From the NCBI GenBank assembly GCA_026770705.1, contig JANJGN010000002.1:12958001-13022000 (forward strand): a DNA stretch of 64,000 bases. The letters are read 5' to 3'. The notes under the pieces were generated by a model. The model had not been told where the DNA came from, made no database searches, and saw only the letters and a program-made list of their open reading frames with translations. This stretch comes from Isurus oxyrinchus (taxonomy: Eukaryota). Both the position numbers and the translations under genes were made by a program. Position 1 is the stretch's first letter; the number at the start of each line of letters is the position of its first letter. Of the stretch, positions 1 through 64,000 are shown piece after piece.

Positions 1-129
1 AGCTGTGAACAGCATCTTCTGCTGCAACAGTGTGACATTTTCCATTCCTCAAAAAACAATCATCTTAAGGTCTCTCTGAGTGACGGTTACTCATCAGTGC
101 CAGGAAGTCTTAGAAGTCTAAGAAACTCC

Positions 130-545
130 ACTGGAGTTTAGGAGAGTAAGAGACAACTTAATTGAAATATATAAGACCCTGAGGGGTCTTGACAGGTTGG
201 ATGTGGAAAGGATGTTTCCTCTTGTGGGAGAGTTTAGAACAAGGGGGGGTCACTGTTTAAAAATAAGGGATTGCCCATTTAAAATGGAAATGAGGAGAAT
301 TTACTTCTCTCAGAGAGTCATGAGTCTTTGGAACTTTCTTCCTCAAAAGACAGCAAAAGCAGAGTCTTTGAATATTTTTAAGGCAGAGTTAGATAAATTC
401 TTGATTAACTTGGGGTGAAGGATTATCAGGGATAGGCAGGAATGGGGGTTGACATTACAATCAGATCAGCCATGATCTTACTGAATGGTGGAGAAGGCTC
501 GAGGGGCCGAGTGGCCTGCTCCTGCACCTAATTCATATGTTCATA
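130..545 (+). mobile_element. CR1-type LINE 3' fragment
   Basis: RGDLIEIYK..MFPLVGE.RTRGH.LK ORF2 C-terminus plus 3' tail (gaatgg..ggcc.gagtggcct.ctcctgc). Confidence 0.8.
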
Positions 546-33550: not shown

Positions 33551-33777
33551 TTTTATTTTATTCACTGCCTCTGAACATTATTGTGATAGCTTTAAGTTAT
33601 TGTAAATCAAGAACCCCGTACCTCATTCATTTTCTATGCAGATTATTGAAGCAACCTGCATGGAGACCTTTTTTTGTCCATATCTGAAGCACTTGCAATT
33701 TTCTTTAATCTCCCACTTGTCTGCACAATTTTCAAATATATCTAAATTATTCAGTAACTTATCCTGCTCAGTTCTGG

Positions 33778-33971
33778 CAACATCTGTGGCTAGAGACACA
33801 GAGTTAACATTTCGAGTCTGTATGATTCTTCTTCAGAGCTCTTAAGAGTCATATAGACTCGAAACGTTAACTCTGTTTTTCTCTCCACAGATGCTGCCAG
33901 ACCTGCTGAGTTTTTCCAGCATTTTTTGTTTTCATTGCCGATTTCCAGCATCTGCAGCATTTTGCTTTTAT
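33778..33971 (+). mobile_element. Short Penelope-like element with head-to-head hammerhead motifs
   Basis: 14-bp TSD CTG(C/T)TCAGTTCTGG at 33764-33777 and 33972-33985; inverted repeat centred on AGCT at 33837-33840. Confidence 0.7.
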
Positions 33972-34323
33972 CTGTTCAGTTCTGGTGTCTGCTATCTTCA
34001 CTAATCCTGTAGCATTTGCAGATTTAGTCCCTGTGCTTGTGACACCTAGTTCCAGATTACTGATAAAAGATATGCTTCTTGTTCAGGTAGCATCCTCGAT
34101 TATTCCAGGGTTGCTGAACAACAGCTTATACCAAGATTTTACTACAAAGCAGGGTGAGGAGACAGGCCCCAAGTCCACCACAGCCAGAATGGTGATCAAA
34201 CCCCATGCTGTTGGCATTATTCTGAGCCATGTGGTCAACTGAACTAACCGGGCCCCCATAAAGATATTAAAAACAATAAAGCTGAAATGAGTGAGAATAA
34301 AATAACTGAATCTAGCTCAGTAC

Positions 34324-36632: not shown

Positions 36633-37853
36633 TAAAATAAAAACTGAAAATTCTGGAAAAACTTAGGTCAGCATCTGTGGAGAGAGAAACAGAGCTAACG
36701 GGCGAAACCTTCCATGTCCACTGGTGGCAGGCGTGATATGTGGCGTAAGCAGACAATATGGCACAATCAGTTTCACAATGGTGGGAAGGCAGGTTGCTAT
36801 TGTCCGTTCAACCTGCCATCGGCGGGCCGCGTTTCCCACCATCGATCGTCGGAAGCCTCATCGAAATACATCAGCATATCATTATCAGGCCATCCCACCA
36901 GGCTCTTGCACCCCCACTGGATCGTCCGTCCACGTCAGCAGGAAAGCATGCTATCATGTTTCACAACAGCACAGAGGCAACATACACTTGGCAGCCTACA
37001 ATTTGGGTGAACTGGAAGTGAATGCAAATCAATGTTCTGCAGGGCTCGCCAGGGTCGCCTGTTGCTTTTCAGGCTTCAGGGTGCTGGTGGGATTGGGGTA
37101 AGTGCACCTTGCCTCGGAGGTGATTTGTGAGGGTGAGGGGAAGCGTGGGGCAAGTGTTGCCCTGCCTCGGAGGCAATTTTTGAGGGTGGGGGGAGCGGGG
37201 TGCAAGTACAATCTTGCCTCTGAGGCGATTTGTGAAGGTGAGGGGGAGCAGAGGGCAAATGCCGCCCTGTTCGGAGGTAACTTTTGAGGATGAGGGAGAC
37301 CAGGGGGTAAGTGCAACTCTGCCTCTAAGGCAACTGGGGTGGGGGGGGGGGATGCAAGGGCAGCCCTGCCTTTGAATATAGTGCACAAGGATTTGGGGTG
37401 GGGGGTTAGGGTGGAAGAGGAAAGTGGCCACACATTCGAGAGACCTGCAAAAAGTGACCATTCCTCTACAACTGAGACAGTTCAGGCACAGCCACATTGA
37501 TATGATTGGGGTCAGGCACCAGCTTAACTGCCCACTCAAGCAATACACAGGCATCAAAGTGCCACCAAATTCTCCAGAACTCTCCCCACACCGCACCACA
37601 CTGTCTCCTGCCCCCAGCTGGAGGCCCACACAGCCCCTTGCAATGTCAGCATCCCCATTTGAACCAGTTTCCGCCATGGTTCAAGCTAACAGGGCAGCCA
37701 TGCAGCGCACTAATCTCTGACCATCCAAGGGCCGGCCAGCACTCTCCGGTAAGTGTTAGGAAGCCGTCACACTTAACCAGGACAGATTCTTAGTACACCC
37801 ATGCTAGCCATGTGTCTCTCGCTTTCATCCTGCAGGAGGATTACATCAGGATC

Positions 37854-41512: not shown

Positions 41513-43317
41513 GCCTCCTGGGCAGAAGCGGTGAGCTGGAAGCAATGAGCACTATGCTTGTGGCTGGCCTTAAAACACGGCGCCCGGCATGATGAAACTG
41601 CAGGGTGATGGCGGGCAGGCGAATGAGGACCTTAACCGCATGGAAACGGAGTGTTTCCCGGGAGTGCATAAATAATTAGGTGGGCTCAGGACGATACGGC
41701 GTGAAAACCCGCTATTGCCTTCAGCAGGCAGCACGCCATTTTACCCAGCCGCTACCGCACTTGGTGCAAATTTGGGAAAACTTTGCCCAACATTTTGAGT
41801 CCATATGACTCTTCAACAGACTTTTATGCTATTGCTTTTTTGTTATGCAATCTCTTCCATTCATTTTATAAATACCATCGCCTTCTCTCTTGTTCTATCT
41901 TTTCCACTCATATCTTCTGTGACACTGCTCATTGTAAGTGGAAGGTTATGCTGTGACAATTAATTTTGCTGGTATGTGGAAGTCGGAAGGGCAATTTTAA
42001 ATGAAGTTTGTAAGGGATCTTCTTGGAGACAGAGTAGCAAGTCTTTTGGATTTGTTTCTGGAAAATAAATACGACTGAATAGTTTGGCTTTGGTACATAC
42101 GTTTAAATCTAAGATCTTTATTTTGAACTTGTTTCTGCTATTTATATTCATCATCTATTTTGATGGCTGTTTTTGAGTATGGAGATGAGCATAAATGAAA
42201 TAAATGCAGGTGGTGTAACCATTTAGCATAATTTACAAAGAGGAAAGATTAAACAATTCCATGATGCAAGTTCAAATTTTCATGATGTCTCACATACAAC
42301 ATACTGTATTTGTTACTTAAGCAACTCTTTGAATTAAGTATTTTGCATTGTTTAGTAAGTCAAAAAGGTTAATTCCTGCTTTACTTTGTTTTGGTATTAA
42401 ATTTAAAGAAACAAATTCTGGTTACTTTTGCTGCTTGACACATAGATTTCCCTGGGAATTTCTCAGTAATGTTCCATGGATATACAAGTGTGCAGCAGAA
42501 CGAAGCCTATAAACAGCAAGTCCTGGCATGCTCCATGAATACTCTGTCTTGCTGTCAATCGCAAATATTTCTTGAGTTGCAGACACAGAGACAGGCCTGC
42601 AATTTTATCCAATCTCCTTATCCCAGCATTTGGAAATATCATGAACTCTAGTTTTAGATTTCTTCGACGCACAAACCTCTGATACTGTTTGACACATTTC
42701 AAAATACTAAACTTGTTAATGTACTGGTAATTTCAACAATTTTGGAAATTATAATGCATATTAATGAATTTATAATGTCACAATTTGTCATTTCCAGTTA
42801 TATGTTTCTATAAGTCAGAGCCCAAGTGGTTTCTGGAGCAAGTTCATTGGTTCTTTCATTTTCTGGTGATTGATTATTTTCATGCACCCTTACTAGTTTT
42901 TCATTGGGAATTTATTTATATACTATACCTAACTTTGATTGACACACTCCCCATCTGTTTCATTGTGATTTGTTGCAATTTTATAAATATGAAATTTCAG
43001 CTGAATTAGTAACAAGGCTAATACGTACTTTACATATAAGGTGTGATGGCTGAGGTGTGATATTTGAAATGTAAGAGGCAGATTATTGGATAGACATACA
43101 TAGACAGATAAATAGAAGAATACAAGGAAAATCCAGGTTAAGTTGAAAATTGAAAACAAATTTGATATAGCATTTTGCACATACAAATGCATCTGTATTT
43201 GCAGGAGGAAAACCTATATTAACTGAATTAGCATTACTCCATCAAACATCTGAAAACTTTTTACCATCTTTTCTACAATATTTTAGGAATTTTACTCAAA
43301 TATATCACTCCTCCTAC

Positions 43318-57267: not shown

Positions 57268-59160
57268 GAGGACAGGGTCTGGTCGCGGAGAGTGGGGGAC
57301 AGGGTCTAGTTGACCTGGGAAGGGAGACGGATTAGTTGAGGAGAGAAGGGGAACAGGGTCTAGCTGCGGAGAGAAGGGGGACAGGGTCTAGCTGCGGAGA
57401 GAAGGGGGACAGGGTCTAGCTGCAGAGAGAAGGGGGACAGGGTCTGGTCGCAGGCAGGGGGAGACAGGGTCTAGTCATGGAGAGAAGGGGGGCAGATTCT
57501 AGTTGCAGAGAAGGGGGACAGGGTCTGGTTCTCAACAGTGAAAGACAGGGTCTGTTCACGGAGTACAGGGAGACAGAGTGTAGCTGTGGAGGGTGGGAGC
57601 CAGAGTCTTGCCATAGAGAGCTGAGGACAGGGTCTGGTTGCAGAGAATGGAGGGCAGGGTCTAGTTCTGGAGAGGGAGGGACAGAGTCTTGTCGCAGGGA
57701 GAGTCGGGGACAGGGTCCGGTCAAGGGGAGGGTGGGGGACAGGGTCCGGTCAAGGGGAGGGTGGGGGACAGGATCCGGTCAAGGGGAGGGTGGGGGACAG
57801 GGTCCGGTCGCAGGGAGTGTGGGGGACAGGGTCCGGTCGCAGGGAGTGTGGGGGACAGGGTCCGGTCGCAGGGAGTGTGGGGGACAGGGTCCGGTCGCAG
57901 GGAGTGTGGGGGACAGGGTCCGGTCGCAGGGAGTGTGGGGGACAGGGTCTGGTCGCAGGGAGTGTGGGGGACAGGGTCCGGTCGCGGAGCGAGTGGGGGA
58001 CAGGGTCCGGTCAAGGGGAGAGTGGGGGACAGGGTCCGGTCAAGGGGAGAGTGGGGGGCAGGGTGCGCTCGCAGGGAGTGTGGGGGACAGGGTCCGGCCG
58101 CAGGGAGTGTGGGGGACAGGGTCCGGTCGCGGAGCGAGTGGGGGACAGGGTCCGGTCAAGGGGAGAGTGGGGGACAGGGTCCGGTCAAGGGGAGAGTGGG
58201 GGACAGGGTCCGGTCAAGGGGAGAGTGGGGGACAGGGTCCGGTCAAGGGGAGAGTGGGGGACAGGGTCTGGTCAAGGGGAGAGTGGGGGACAGGGTTCAG
58301 TCAAGGGGAGAGTTGGGGACAGGGTCCGGTCAAGGGGAGAGTGGGGGACAGGGTCCCGGGAAGAGGAGAGTGGAGGAGAGGGTCCAGCCGCGGGGAGTGT
58401 GGGGGGGGAGACAGGGTCCGGTCAAGGGGAGAGTCGGGGTCAAGGGTCCGGTCAAGGGGAAAGTGGGGGACAGGGTCCGGTAACGGGGAGTGTGGGGGAC
58501 AGGGTCCGGTCAAGAGGGTAGTGGAGGACAGGGTCCGGTCAAGGGGTGCATGGGGGGCAGGGTCCGGTCGCGGGGAGAGGGGAGGTGGGGGGACAGGGTC
58601 CCGTCGCGGGGAGTGTGCGGGACAGGGTCCGGTCAAGAGGAGAGCGGGGGACAGGGTCCGGTCAAGAGGAGAGCGGGGGACAGGGCCTTGTCGGTGGCGC
58701 GGGGGTTGAGGACAGGGTCCGGTCAAGGGGAGAGCGGGGGACAGGGTCCGGTCAAGGGGAGAGCGGGGGACAGGGTCCGGTCAAGGGGAGAGGGGGGGGA
58801 CAGGGCCTTGTCGGTGGGGCGGGGGTTGAGGACAGGGTCCGGTCAAGGGGAGAGCGGGGGACAGGGTCCGGTCAAGGGGAGAGTCGGGGGTCAAGGGTCT
58901 GGTCAAGGGGAGAGGGGGGGACAGGGTCCGGTCAAGGGGAGAGCGGGGGACAGGGTCCGGTCAAGGGGAGAGCGGGGGACAGGGTCCGGTCAAGGGGAGA
59001 GCGGGGGACAGGGTCCGGTCAAGGGGAGAGTCGGGGGTCAAGGGTCTGGTCAAGGGGAGAGGGGGGGACAGGGCCTTGTCGGTGGGGCAGGGGTTGAGGG
59101 CAGGGTCCGGTCAAGGAGAGTAGTTGGGGGGGGAGGGGGGGCGGGGGAGACAGGGTCTTG
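57268..59160. repeat. G-rich 29-bp minisatellite (GGGGACAGGGTCCGGTCAAGGGGAGAGTG)
   Basis: Directly visible tandem units, e.g. ACAGGG at 58145 and 58174. Confidence 0.95.
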
Positions 59161-59480
59161 TTTGGTGGGGGGCTCGATGCACGTGACCGAGTGCACGCGC
59201 GCTGGCGGTTGGTGCGGGACTTCAGGCGCCTTCCCTCCTTCCCGGGAGAAGCCGATCACGGCGAAGAGGGCTTGCGGTTGCAGCGCGGCCACGGGGCTTC
59301 GCTGCCGTTTCTCACCGCCACCGCGCCCGTGTTGTTAGTCAGAACAGGTAGAAATAGTGCCCGTACATTTTCTGATAACCGAGGCCGTTCCCTTGGCGTC
59401 TTCGTTGCTCTCCGTCTCCCATGGCAGCGGCGCCAGGCGACGGAACAGCGCGAGGATCAGAAAGGGCAGCGAATAGCGGA
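59160..59480 (-). promoter_or_regulatory. WDR27: CpG island; probable WDR27 promoter and non-coding exon 1 (candidate donor GCG|gtgaga at 59316)
   Basis: The main CpG-dense unique stretch; lies upstream of the first coding exon, which has a splice acceptor 1 nt before its ATG. Confidence 0.65.
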
Positions 59481-59689
59481 AGCTGACAAACTCAAAACCA
59501 TGGTGCCTGAGAATGGCAGAGAAAGCTGCAGCACAGAAAGAGGCCACTCCATCTGCCTATCCTGCCTGTGTTGATGGAAGTTGGATTGGGTAGTTGCACA
59601 GAATTTGGTGCATTTTCCAGCCAAGAAGCAAAATTGGAATCTTCTTAACAAATTGAATGCTTGTGACAATCACGTCCACGTCCTTGTTT

Positions 59690-60030
59690 GCTAATAAATC
59701 AGGCGGTCGGACAGCAATGTCCTCTCCCAAGCCAGCCTGCCCAGCATCGCGGTGCTAATCAGCTCTCAAAACCAGCTCTGCTGGGCGGTACATGTCACTC
59801 GTACGCCTGACACCAGAATCCCGAAGCAACCGCTCTACCCGGAACTAGGTGCAGGGGACTGCCGGGGGACTGTGGAAACGCTTTGGGATGTCCCCAAAGC
59901 ATCCCCGAAGAGCTCAAACGTACCCACCGCCTCCTGGGAATCCCTGGCCTGTGACCAACCAAAATGGAGAAGGTTCATTCGGGAAGGCACCGAACACATG
60001 GCGAGAGTTTGTGGGGAATGCACAGAGGTG
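59690..60030 (+). mobile_element. RTE-clade LINE 3' fragment
   Basis: QLCWAVHVTRTPDTRIPKQPLY.EL...WESLACDQPKWRRFIREG. Confidence 0.8.
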
Positions 60031-60059
60031 ACGTCACAAACCTACAAACAAGTCAATTT

Positions 60060-63000
60060 AGTAACTGTAGCTTTAAGGAATGTAGTGATTGTAGCTTTGA
60101 GACTTATTGTACTGTGTAGTTTCTCGTGACAGTGTGAACTAATCAGCCCAAAACGCGGAGAACCTTAGGGCTGGAGTTTGTGTCTGGTTATGTTTCTTGA
60201 TGGAAGCATGAAACTGCTGCTGAAGCCCTGTAAATAAAATTCACTTTCTTCTGAGAAATCTGTGTGCAAAATCAAGTTTATAACAATTGGTGATGAGGAT
60301 AAATTGGTTCCAGCACTGTCCCTCGCTGAGTGTATGTGAGTATCTTATTTTAAACAGAGGAAAGGGAAAATATACTCCCCAGGTATGCCACTTTTTGGCA
60401 GGATCAATCCCTTCAACTCATCCACAGAGGTTTGAGTCAATGTTTAGAATGCATCAGTTTCTTTTTCCAAGCAAACGAAATAATGGTGGAGGAAAAATGG
60501 AAAGCCTAGGCGTCTGTAGGACTAAAACTTATAATTTAACCCATAGTTTGACAGCCCCAAATGGTCCCGATTCGAAGACCTTCAGCGAATTGGTAGACCT
60601 CATAAAGGACCATTTTCCACCCAAACTCCCTGTAATTATGCAGCGGTTCAAATTTAATTCGCACGTAAGAGCCATGGGGGAGACCATAGCAACATACGTA
60701 GCGAAGTTGAAACAGCTAACTGAACATTGTGACTTCGGAGAAACCCTAAACAATGTGTTAAGGGATCTGTTCTGTTGAAGGGTCATGAGGACTCGAAACG
60801 TCAACTCTGATCTTCTCTGCCGATGCTGCCAGACCTGCTGAGTTTTTTCAGGTAATTCTGTTTTTGTTTTGGATTTCCAGCATCCGCAGTTTTTTGTTTT
60901 TATCTCTGTGTTAAGGGATCGTTTGGTCTGCGGTGTGCACAATGATGTCATTCAATGACGGTTATTAGCTGAAGTAAATATTGATTTTAAAAGAACATTG
61001 GAAATAGCGCTTGCGATGGAAAGCGCCAAGCAGGATTTGCAGGCCTTACAGGGTGTACAAAACGGCACAGTTTTCCAGTTGGGGTGGGAACAGACCACTG
61101 GACGTGGCGTGAAAATCAGGGAGTCAGCTGCAAAGTGGAAGACAGTCCCTGCTACCTGAAAATTTAAAAAATATACAGGAGACAGCTCAGCAGCAAATAT
61201 AAAAATGAATTGTTACCGACGTGAAAGTAACCATATCCCTGTAACTTGCTGTTTTAAAGAGGTGGAATGCCATTATTGTCATAAAAGAGGGCACATACTG
61301 AAGCAATGTAAAGCGGACTCCCAGGCAGCAAACTAAACTGATCAAAGTACATAATGTAGAAGAACCAGAAACCACTCATTCCGATGTTTATTCTCTATTT
61401 AATGTGAAAATAGGAAAACAGAGCCATTCACTCTTACTCTGCAGGTCAATGTAAAACCTTTGATTATGGAAGTGGAGACTGGTGCATCAACCCCTATAGT
61501 GGGGGAGCACACATTCAAATATATAAACAAGGGTACTCAACAATTGAATATGGAGCAGACTTCAGCCAAATTGAAAACGTATACTGGTGAAGCCATACAA
61601 GTGAAAGGTATTACCACTGTACCTGTTTATTACAAACACCAGACAGCTCAGCTCCCTGTGATTATAGTGGAAGGTGATGGACCAAGCCTTGTAGGCCGTG
61701 ATTAGTTGAAATAAATTAAACTAAATTTGTCTGAAATTTTCCAGCTGAGAGCTGGAGGACTTTCAGAGCTGCTAAAGAAATATAACAAGGTCTTTCGAGA
61801 AATCAAGGACCTGCAGACTAAGATCTATGTTGACTCTGAAGCAATTCCTTTTTTTTTTAAAGCCAGGCCTGTGCCCTATGCCCTGAGAGACAAAGTTGAC
61901 ACCAAATTAAACCATTTAAAGAAGCTGGATACTATTCAGCCAGTTCAATTTTCAAAATGGGCAGCACCCATAGTCCCTATCTTGAAACCAAACCAGACCA
62001 TTCGTATTTGTGGGAGATTACAAGTTAACAGTAAACAAGGCTGCCAAGTTGAACAAGCACCCTATCCCCAGGATCGAGGATCTGTATCGTTTACTTGGGC
62101 CACTGGGTGGTTGCCCAAGGGTTACACCTGGTAGAAGAAAAAGTCAAAGCTATTAAGGAGGCACCCTTACCTACAAATGTCTCAGAGCTCAAGACATTCT
62201 TGAGTATGGTAAATTACTGTGGTCAAATCCTACCCAACTTATCAATGGTCCTAGCCCCTTTACACATTATTAAAGAAAAACCAATGTTGGTCTTGGAAGT
62301 CACTTTAAGAAGAAGTCTTCACGAATGTTAAACAGCTCTTGCACTCTTCGAACTTGTTAGTATACCACAGCCCATCAAAAGAATTGGTGCTAACTTGCAA
62401 CACATCCCTCTATGGCATGAGAGCAATGCTATCTCACAAGATGGACGACAGTTCAGAAAGGCCAATAGGCTATGTATCCAAAACCCTCCCTACAGCCAAG
62501 AAGGCTATTCACAAATCAAGAAAGAAGGATTTTCGATTATTTTTGGAGTTAAAAAAATTCCATCAATATGCACATGGGTGACACTTTACCATAATACCTC
62601 ATCACAAACTGCTCTTGGGTCTGTTTAGCGAAGAAAAAGCTATCCCTCCCATAGCTTCCGCAAGAATTCAAAGATGGGCTTTGATTTTATCAGCATATGA
62701 ATATACTTTTATGCACAGACCACGGATGCATATAGCCAATGCAGATGCCCTAAGTCACCTTCCTTTGCAGGAAAGCATTGAACATGCTCCAACTCCCCTC
62801 GAGATTGTATTTTAGCGATGAATTTCCTGGATTCTTCGCCAGTTTGTGCAAGACAAATATAAAACTGGACTAACCATGATCCAGTCTTGTCTAGAGTACA
62901 AGACCAAGTATTGAAAGGATGGTCCCAGGAACCAGTCCCCAAAGAATTGAAGCCATTCTTCATTCAAAAGAATGGATTGGGTAGTCAGGATGGTATCTTA

Positions 63001-64000
63001 TTATGGGGTGCACACGTCATCGTTCCTTCACAAGGGAACCACTCTTAATTGAGTTGCATAGCGCACATCCTGGAATTTCCAAAATGAAAATGCTTGCAAG
63101 GAGCTATATCTGGTGGCCAGGTATAGACAGTGATATAGAAAAAATGGCACAGAGCCAGCAACTACAGAAGTTGACTGTTGCAGCCCCACTGCACCCGTGA
63201 GAATGGCCTGGTCAACCCTGGGTGAGACTGCATTTAGATTATGTTTTTGCCATTTCTAGGCACTGTGTTTCTAATAATAATTGATGCACCTTCCAAATGA
63301 TTGGACATATATGAAGTTAGATCGCCAATGTCAGATGTGACTAAAGAAAGGTGATGCCAAAGTTTTTCTATACATGGATTGCCAGGAGTCATTGTCTCAG
63401 GTACTGCATTTACTAGTGCTGAATTTCAAAGATTTGTGATTCTAAATGGTATCAAACACATAAAGGCAGCACCCAACCATCTGTCATCTAATGGATTGGC
63501 CGAGAGAGCAGTACAAACTTTTAAAGTTGGGATGCAAACTTCTCGGAAGGAACAATGGAGACTAAACTTTCACGTTTCCTATTTCACTATAGAATGGCCC
63601 CCCACACGACTACAGGTTCAACACCTTCAGAATTACTTATGAAGTACTGCCTTTGTACAAGATTAAGCCTGGTACTTCCCAATTTAGCGGGGAAGGTAGA
63701 GAACAGTTAAAGGAATCAAAAAGGTGACTCATGATTTGCATTGCCGAGAGCAAGAATTTATTGTCGGTGAAACAGTATTTGTACAAAACTTCAATGGTGG
63801 ATCGAGTTGGTTAGCTGGTGTAATAGTTTCTGTGACAAGACTGTTGTCATACCATGTAGAAGTGGAGGACCAGATCACCTGAAAACATGTGGATCATTTG
63901 AGAAGAAGGGAGATACCCAAACAAACTGATGTTCCACCTGTAACCATTGTAGAACCTGTGGTCCCCGTTGTGATTGATCAACCAAGGGTAGACATGCCAG
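60060..64000 (+). mobile_element. Gypsy LTR retrotransposon (canonical PR-RT-RH-IN order), decayed, runs off the window
   Basis: LTR ends CA at 60285, PBS-like TGGTGATGAG at 60288; gag QRFKFNSH..GETIATYVAKLK, CCHC, protease ETGAS, WAAPIVPI, ERPIGYVSK, integrase HSAHPGI and SNGLAERAVQT; RT core deleted near 62085. Confidence 0.9.
60768..60906 (+). mobile_element. 139-bp hammerhead-bearing Penelope-like insertion in Gypsy gag
   Basis: Perfect 14-bp TSD TGTGTTAAGGGATC at 60754-60767 and 60907-60920; removing it restores gag LRDRLVCG. Confidence 0.85.

Follow-up and report, generated by a model that had tools for sequence, protein, structure and literature searches.

A Penelope-like pseudo-LTR end with a minimal hammerhead motif, from a family with a lineage-wide U at core position 6 and a fixed 5' start

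Penelope-like elements (PLEs) that carry an endonuclease (EN+) encode a reverse transcriptase (RT) followed by a C-terminal GIY-YIG domain, and a CX2-5CxxC linker marks the Neptune/Nematis type (PMC8557442). According to the same account, their copies form partial tandems with pseudo-LTRs (pLTRs), with an inverted 5' copy, an optional tail of 30-40 nt and a hammerhead motif inside the pLTR. These hammerheads are described as minimal: stem I is short, one base stands unpaired between positions 9 and 10.1, pair 10.1-11.1 is G-C, positions 15.2-16.2 form a palindrome in place of helix III, and most truncated copies carry a single motif (PMC4209133). In the anole element Poseidon PAc, reverse transcription initiates at either of two internal positions, which set the extent of the tail; RNA ends are absent from the ribozyme cut site, and hammerhead mutants leave insertion in vitro unaffected (PMC11167929). 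Non-LTR retrozymes of animals are likewise pLTR-related, and are described as non-coding units with a type I hammerhead and a long target site duplication (TSD) (PMC7229834; bioRxiv 10.64898/2026.07.22.740005). The family described here is of modest importance and bears on the role of the hammerhead in Penelope elements (PMC4209133, PMC11167929).

The window analysed here is a stretch of 64,000 nt (C2:12958001-13022000), and the genome searched for related copies amounted to 4.98 Gb. A single, non-tandem insert of 139 nt lies at 60768-60906 of the window on the forward strand, as do all its parts. A preliminary description of this DNA had reported a 139-bp insert with a perfect 14-bp TSD, and this holds: copies of TGTGTTAAGGGATC at 60754-60767 and 60907-60920 are identical at 14/14 positions and bracket the insert. 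The chance of such a repeat is ~5e-9 at a fixed place and 4e-6 over 30x30 offsets, and 14 bp is also the modal length of the flanking repeats in the family. The first base of the insert, T at 60768, is a junction base outside the element; 66/69 young copies have A there, and the family forms a 4-bp stem I, AGUU/AACU. The insert starts at -1 relative to the hammerhead-like motif, which occupies 60769-60805 and was delimited from its sequence, the layout given in PMC4209133 and family counts. The remaining pLTR (60806-60869) extends as far as the nearer of the two common 3' end points, at ~+100 relative to where the motif begins, and is followed at 60870-60906 by the optional 30-40-nt extension known as the Penelope tail, which was assigned by its match to the element template and from the tails described in PMC8557442 and PMC11167929. 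The match to the full-length element continues past the right end of the insert to 60912. The TGTGTT that opens the right duplication also matches the template, which leaves a 6-nt uncertainty in where the insert ends at its 3' side. This 6-nt primer-template match differs from the situation described for PAc, which starts without homology (PMC11167929).

The flanks of the insert translate into gag-like sequence followed by weak matches to a protease, an RNase H and an integrase zinc finger, indicating that the insert sits in a decayed Ty3/Gypsy-type LTR retrotransposon (60401-63640 on the forward strand, limits approximate) with several stops and frame changes. The insert interrupts the gag-like frame (Retrotrans_gag, E 0.052), and beyond it lie a weak protease (gag-asp_proteas, 0.0077), an RNase H (RT_RNaseH_2, 7.8e-18) and an integrase zinc-binding domain (Integrase_H2C2, 1.2e-09). 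As one of tens of thousands of copies, and inside a dead element, this single insertion matters little. Elsewhere in the window, at ~57400-59340, there are G-rich tandem repeats with GC up to 0.65, strong skew and long repetitive open frames.

The insert is the pLTR end plus tail, the last ~140 nt, of an autonomous, probably Neptune-type PLE. Close genomic copies often extend upstream, and three of them share more than 1.4 kb coding for RT and GIY-YIG. At locus L071 (C1:462208-468932) the tandem unit measures ~3,354 bp, and the flanking repeats each carry the same motif with U at position 6 (U6). The search for copies beside a Penelope RT/GIY-YIG reading frame, which had been proposed beforehand, succeeded here: an intact ORF at L071:3734-6487 encodes 918 aa, with RT first and GIY-YIG at the C-terminus. 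RVT_1 scored E 6.9e-08, above the cut-off, while GIY-YIG at E 8.9e-04 and 20.0 bits stayed below its cut-off of 22.6 but reached 23.1 and 23.5 in two other copies. The peptide CPRKRCNTC precedes GIY-YIG in the L071 translation and fits the CX2-5CxxC linker. The probable Neptune/Nematis assignment follows from this linker motif. Over 146 nt the insert is 91.8% identical to the end of the L071 unit. The earlier claim of a Penelope-type retro-insertion with a true TSD was right.

Exact matches across the genome numbered 75,103 for a 32-mer, 98,951 for a 39-mer and 108,694 for a 33-nt anchor. From the beginning of contig C1 we took 82 distinct insertions for which both flanking sequences were available, comprising 47 head-to-head inverted pairs and 35 solo copies; copies lacking a flank or continuing into the ORF were left out of this TSD survey. 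Flanking repeats of at least 8 nt occurred in 53/82 insertions and in 66/1,619 mismatched controls. Repeat length had its mode at 14 bp (19/82) and was 13-16 nt in 40/82, compared with 8-10 bp in the Adineta examples described in PMC3846280. The 3' ends of 100 element arms were bimodal, at ~+95..102 and +130..147, recalling the pair of RT start sites by which the tail of PAc is defined (PMC11167929). Stubs that are solo, measure 101-139 nt and start within -10..+12 made up 16/82 insertions, and copy lengths grade without a break from ~100 nt in stubs to 3.35 kb in tandem units. Tandem or partial-tandem pLTRs, inverted 5' copies, an optional tail and TSDs are all found in the family. It differs from the EN+ PLEs as described in PMC8557442 in its abundance, ~10^5 arms, and in the sharp 5' start at the motif. 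The match to the end of an ORF-bearing unit, the solo stubs, the modal TSD and the tail end points together mark the insert as an ordinary product of the autonomous element. Very probably it represents the end repeat plus tail, copied as a solo unit that is short at its 5' side and likely made by a ~14-bp staggered GIY-YIG cut and RT copying.

One definite and one probable array were seen among these loci. L071 is an array of near-identical full-length elements with a period of ~3.35 kb, one unit of which has the intact 918-aa ORF, and its lineage may still be active. At C5:83299075-83309738, five same-strand matches 2.4-2.8 kb apart are probably another tandem array of the family.

The preliminary description had taken the perfect TSD as a sign of a young insertion, and this did not stand up. 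The insert differs from the young-subfamily majority at 5/100 element positions (6/101 with the junction base), two of them CpG-type, while the median difference among 69 young copies chosen by exact anchor is 1%. By simple arithmetic, a perfect 14-bp pair survives about a quarter of the time at 5% decay, so the TSD says little about age. The closest fetched relative is 98.5% identical. The insert belongs to the U6 lineage and lies outside the youngest copies.

The first 38 nt of the insert read as the minimal type I hammerhead layout that had been described. Stem I is GUU/AAC (60769-71/60803-05), with 3 bp in this copy. The core, CUG-U-U-GA, spans 60772-78, its position 6 being the U at 60775, and an extra A (A9a) follows at 60779. 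Stem II, GGGUC/GACUC (60780-84/60790-94), has 5 pairs including one G-U and is closed by the loop AUGAG. GAA at 60795-97 and a palindromic ACGU at 60798-801 follow, and the cut is predicted after C 60802. The features of minimal PLE hammerheads are present: the two stems, of which stem I is short, the base between 9 and 10.1, the G10.1-C11.1 pair, GAAA, the palindromic 15.2-16.2 with helix III lacking, and an NUH triplet; truncated copies of the family likewise carry mostly single motifs. The core departs from CUGANGA by its U at position 6; across the family it reads CUG-U-Y-GA, and the text of PMC4209133 describes a U3-A8 core variant, not U6. With 5 bp, stem II is also shorter than its counterpart of 7-8 bp in the Schistosoma families of PMC4209133. 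The extra A after A9 had been listed as a possible defect, but it is a conserved base of minimal PLE hammerheads according to the Discussion of PMC4209133. An Rfam scan of 59500-62200 returned no hammerhead model at E<=10 and four weak unrelated hits. In folding calculations, hammerhead pair probabilities of the monomer did not exceed 0.021, the hammerhead fold of the first 45 nt reached -5.5 against -8.3 kcal/mol for the best fold, and the insert was no more stable than its shuffles (z -0.48). An unfavoured monomer fold is expected for a motif without helix III.

Covariation in the stems, which had been proposed as a check, was found in stem II. It reads GAGUC/GACUC, GGGUC/GACUC and AGGUC/GACCU in three families, and since both sides change between families, the motif is a real hammerhead descendant. 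Among the 100 matches listed out of 1,295, pair 10.1-11.1 was A-U in 68, G-C in 23, G-U in 8 and A-C in 1, a tally made by eye that reflects few independent events and a search pattern with fixed inner pairs. A third, older hammerhead family (L285-L299) with a canonical core and stem II AGGUC/GACCU (A-U at 10.1-11.1) accounts for about two thirds of the listed matches of those 1,295. The window itself holds an older head-to-head inverted pair at 33769-33973, 73-81% identical to the insert or the unit, whose inverted arm has a canonical A6 core. Short decayed fragments of related pLTRs lie on the reverse strand at 41790-41820, with a U6 core and the older stem II, and at 36633-36700.

The U at position 6 had been reported as a departure from the core that could mark this copy as inactive. 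The base is indeed U, but the reading as decay of one copy fails, since the change is fixed throughout the lineage: position 6 is A in 113/75,103 exact matches, and U in 68/69 young copies. A looser pattern gave 97,001 U6 and 6,690 A6 motifs, and related families keep A6. Every copy sample came from contig C1, the young set from its first 4.6 Mb and the old sets from its first 21 Mb. The two A6 sets had median divergences of 8.4% and 5.4%, compared with 3.9% among old U6 copies and 1% among young ones, values that the anchors bias low. On a midpoint-rooted tree of 37 copies with the ORF end (three pairs being duplicates), position 6 needs two changes, against a mean of 10.2 after shuffling. 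The two changes can be read as one gain of U6 among old copies, on a weakly supported branch, and one reversion inside the youngest group. U6 was then retained through a ladder of successively younger subfamilies. The family-wide change likely weakens cutting, by analogy with natural A6C hammerheads, which retain low activity (PMC3088659, PMC7151607); in one such ribozyme A6C lowered the rate from 0.30 to 3.6e-6 per min at 0.3 mM Mg2+ (PMC7151607). These observations suggest that the element spreads without needing ribozyme cutting.

A bolder reading, somewhat less likely than not, would be that in a vertebrate Penelope lineage the nearly invariant core base A6 changed to U once and was then carried into ~100,000 copies over successive subfamilies with the rest of the fold kept. 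On this reading the motif would be either a natural U6 ribozyme, protein-assisted or metal-switched, or a signal without catalysis that marks the RNA start or binds protein; the stub start would be the 5' end of the RNA. The points that appear to be new, judged from sequence, lie at the family level only, namely the fixed A6U core and the fixed start. A search of the main texts of openly accessible papers returned no A6U PLE hammerhead and no account of the family; the supplementary alignments of PMC4209133 may hold variants of this type. With A6 ancestors and U6 descendants that have an intact ORF, the family offers a natural pair on the question of whether cutting is needed.

A working U6 hammerhead that cut as a dimer with help from protein elsewhere in the element's cycle, for example in releasing unit RNA from tandem arrays, would explain the conservation of the motif. 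Between the old-U6 and young-U6 majorities 4/7 free positions changed, compared with 1/31 core or stem positions (Fisher p 0.002), and the single core or stem change, A-U to G-U, keeps the pairing. The position classes were, however, set after the structure had been seen, and when the comparison is made with the downstream pLTR, where 7/62 positions changed, the constraint does not reach significance (p 0.26). Column counts omitted 4/30 older loci whose motif was truncated or carried a deletion, and the constraint test omitted two A6 back-mutants. The shift of the cut triplet from GUU to GUC counts in favour of a working variant, as does the anole motif, which is described as cutting only with its protein (PMC11167929). 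The low activity that natural A6C hammerheads keep also speaks for a working variant, whereas the steep loss of rate measured for A6C, the failure of the literature search to find A6U, and a cut site that leaves no genomic footprint speak against it. On balance we regard a working U6 ribozyme of this kind as rather unlikely.

The footprint was sought in the 5' ends of 100 arms carrying a downstream anchor. Twenty-seven ended at -7..+2 and 9 at +3..+10, against 5 at -27..-8 and 11 at +11..+51, a roughly tenfold peak at the motif start; starts upstream of about -50 were not used on account of low-complexity DNA and self-matches. None of the 100 arms started at the cut site (+30..+35). By pattern, genome-wide, 374/108,694 copies start at the cut site and 218 at a control site (+37), a 1.7-fold ratio from which a small cleavage-derived fraction may follow. 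Upon inspection, 10/12 cut-site matches were inversion junctions, several of them explicable by microhomology. An older family that mixes A6 and U6 cores has no cut-site peak either (38/8,398), and 15 inspected matches from it comprised 6 true junctions and 9 copies in which the upstream motif persisted and the sequence was locally deleted or altered. Because the peak is also missing from this mixed family, its absence is not to be pinned on U6. The lack of a cut-site peak suggests that the insertion template was mostly uncut RNA, in agreement with PAc, for which RNA ends at the cut site are likewise absent and the hammerhead is dispensable in vitro (PMC11167929). PAc belongs to a different clade and has its motif across the ATG, while here the motif lies ~170 nt upstream of the ATG. 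The first genome search (58 matches, 40/84 candidates scored) was biased toward copies sharing private changes of this copy, and an apparent start cluster at query position 43, together with arm-to-arm differences, was rejected as ascertainment.

The start site has the form YY-A-G-Y-Y behind a pyrimidine tract in A6 and U6 families alike. From its sequence we infer that it is a transcription start. The initiator consensus resembles it. Twenty-three sequencing runs contain a stretch of the element, and contigs of 4 of these runs, guessed to be RNA, cover 29/30 bins, the contigs being uninformative on ends, strand or level. A fixed start could also arise if the motif start were a splice acceptor or a point where RT stalls at the stem. 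A pyrimidine tract and YAG precede the core in most upstream-extending A6 and U6 copies, YY-AG after such a tract fits a 3' splice site equally well, a Drosophila virilis intron is described as ending at helix I (PMC4209133), and an RT-stalling hairpin could yield the same peak. Yet many arms retain the AG at -2/-1, the junctions share no upstream exon, the youngest subfamily has a weaker AAG, and no GT..AG joint ending at the motif-start AG was listed in the contigs of the 4 runs, which counts weakly against splicing. We consider this explanation unlikely and retain a transcription start as the probable origin of the fixed 5' end.

An insertion mechanism may be proposed on this basis. Transcription would begin at the initiator-like YY-A-G-Y-Y, and the resulting RNA, uncut by the ribozyme, would serve as template. 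The GIY-YIG endonuclease of the element would cleave the two target strands ~14 bp apart, and target-primed reverse transcription would begin inside the RNA, by analogy with PAc (PMC11167929), aided at the present junction by the 6-nt TGTGTT match between primer and template. RT would then copy from the tail back to the probable RNA 5' end, just before the hammerhead motif. The U6 ribozyme itself would be weak or silent, with its fold or sequence kept for another role. The fixed 5' start and the ~14-bp stagger make concrete predictions for transcription and insertion.

The separate non-autonomous, retrozyme-like family suggested in the preliminary description is highly improbable. In such a family, be it retrozyme- or SINE-like, short hammerhead units would be transcribed independently, would undergo cleavage in dimeric form and would rely on the Penelope protein for movement in trans. 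In its favour, solo units that are short, have TSDs of their own and begin at a fixed point are frequent, the retrozymes of animals descend from pLTRs of PLEs (bioRxiv 10.64898/2026.07.22.740005), and in Adineta the pLTR sequences are enough to allow mobilisation in trans (PMC3846280). Against it, retrozymes are defined by tandemly repeated short units, each containing a hammerhead (PMC7229834), whereas this copy is single with a minimal rather than canonical motif; only 2 same-strand pairs less than 500 bp apart occur among 100 listed anchors, copies do not start at the cut site, lengths are continuous, and the sequence is the end of an autonomous, ORF-bearing element.

Two further junction types were noted among the copies. 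At L064 (C1:1318670), a solo stub has ~60 nt of unrelated sequence between the left duplication and the element, apparently captured at the 5' junction. In L216-L227, some inversion junctions join at the stem I complementarity AACT/AGTT, which suggests template switching by microhomology.
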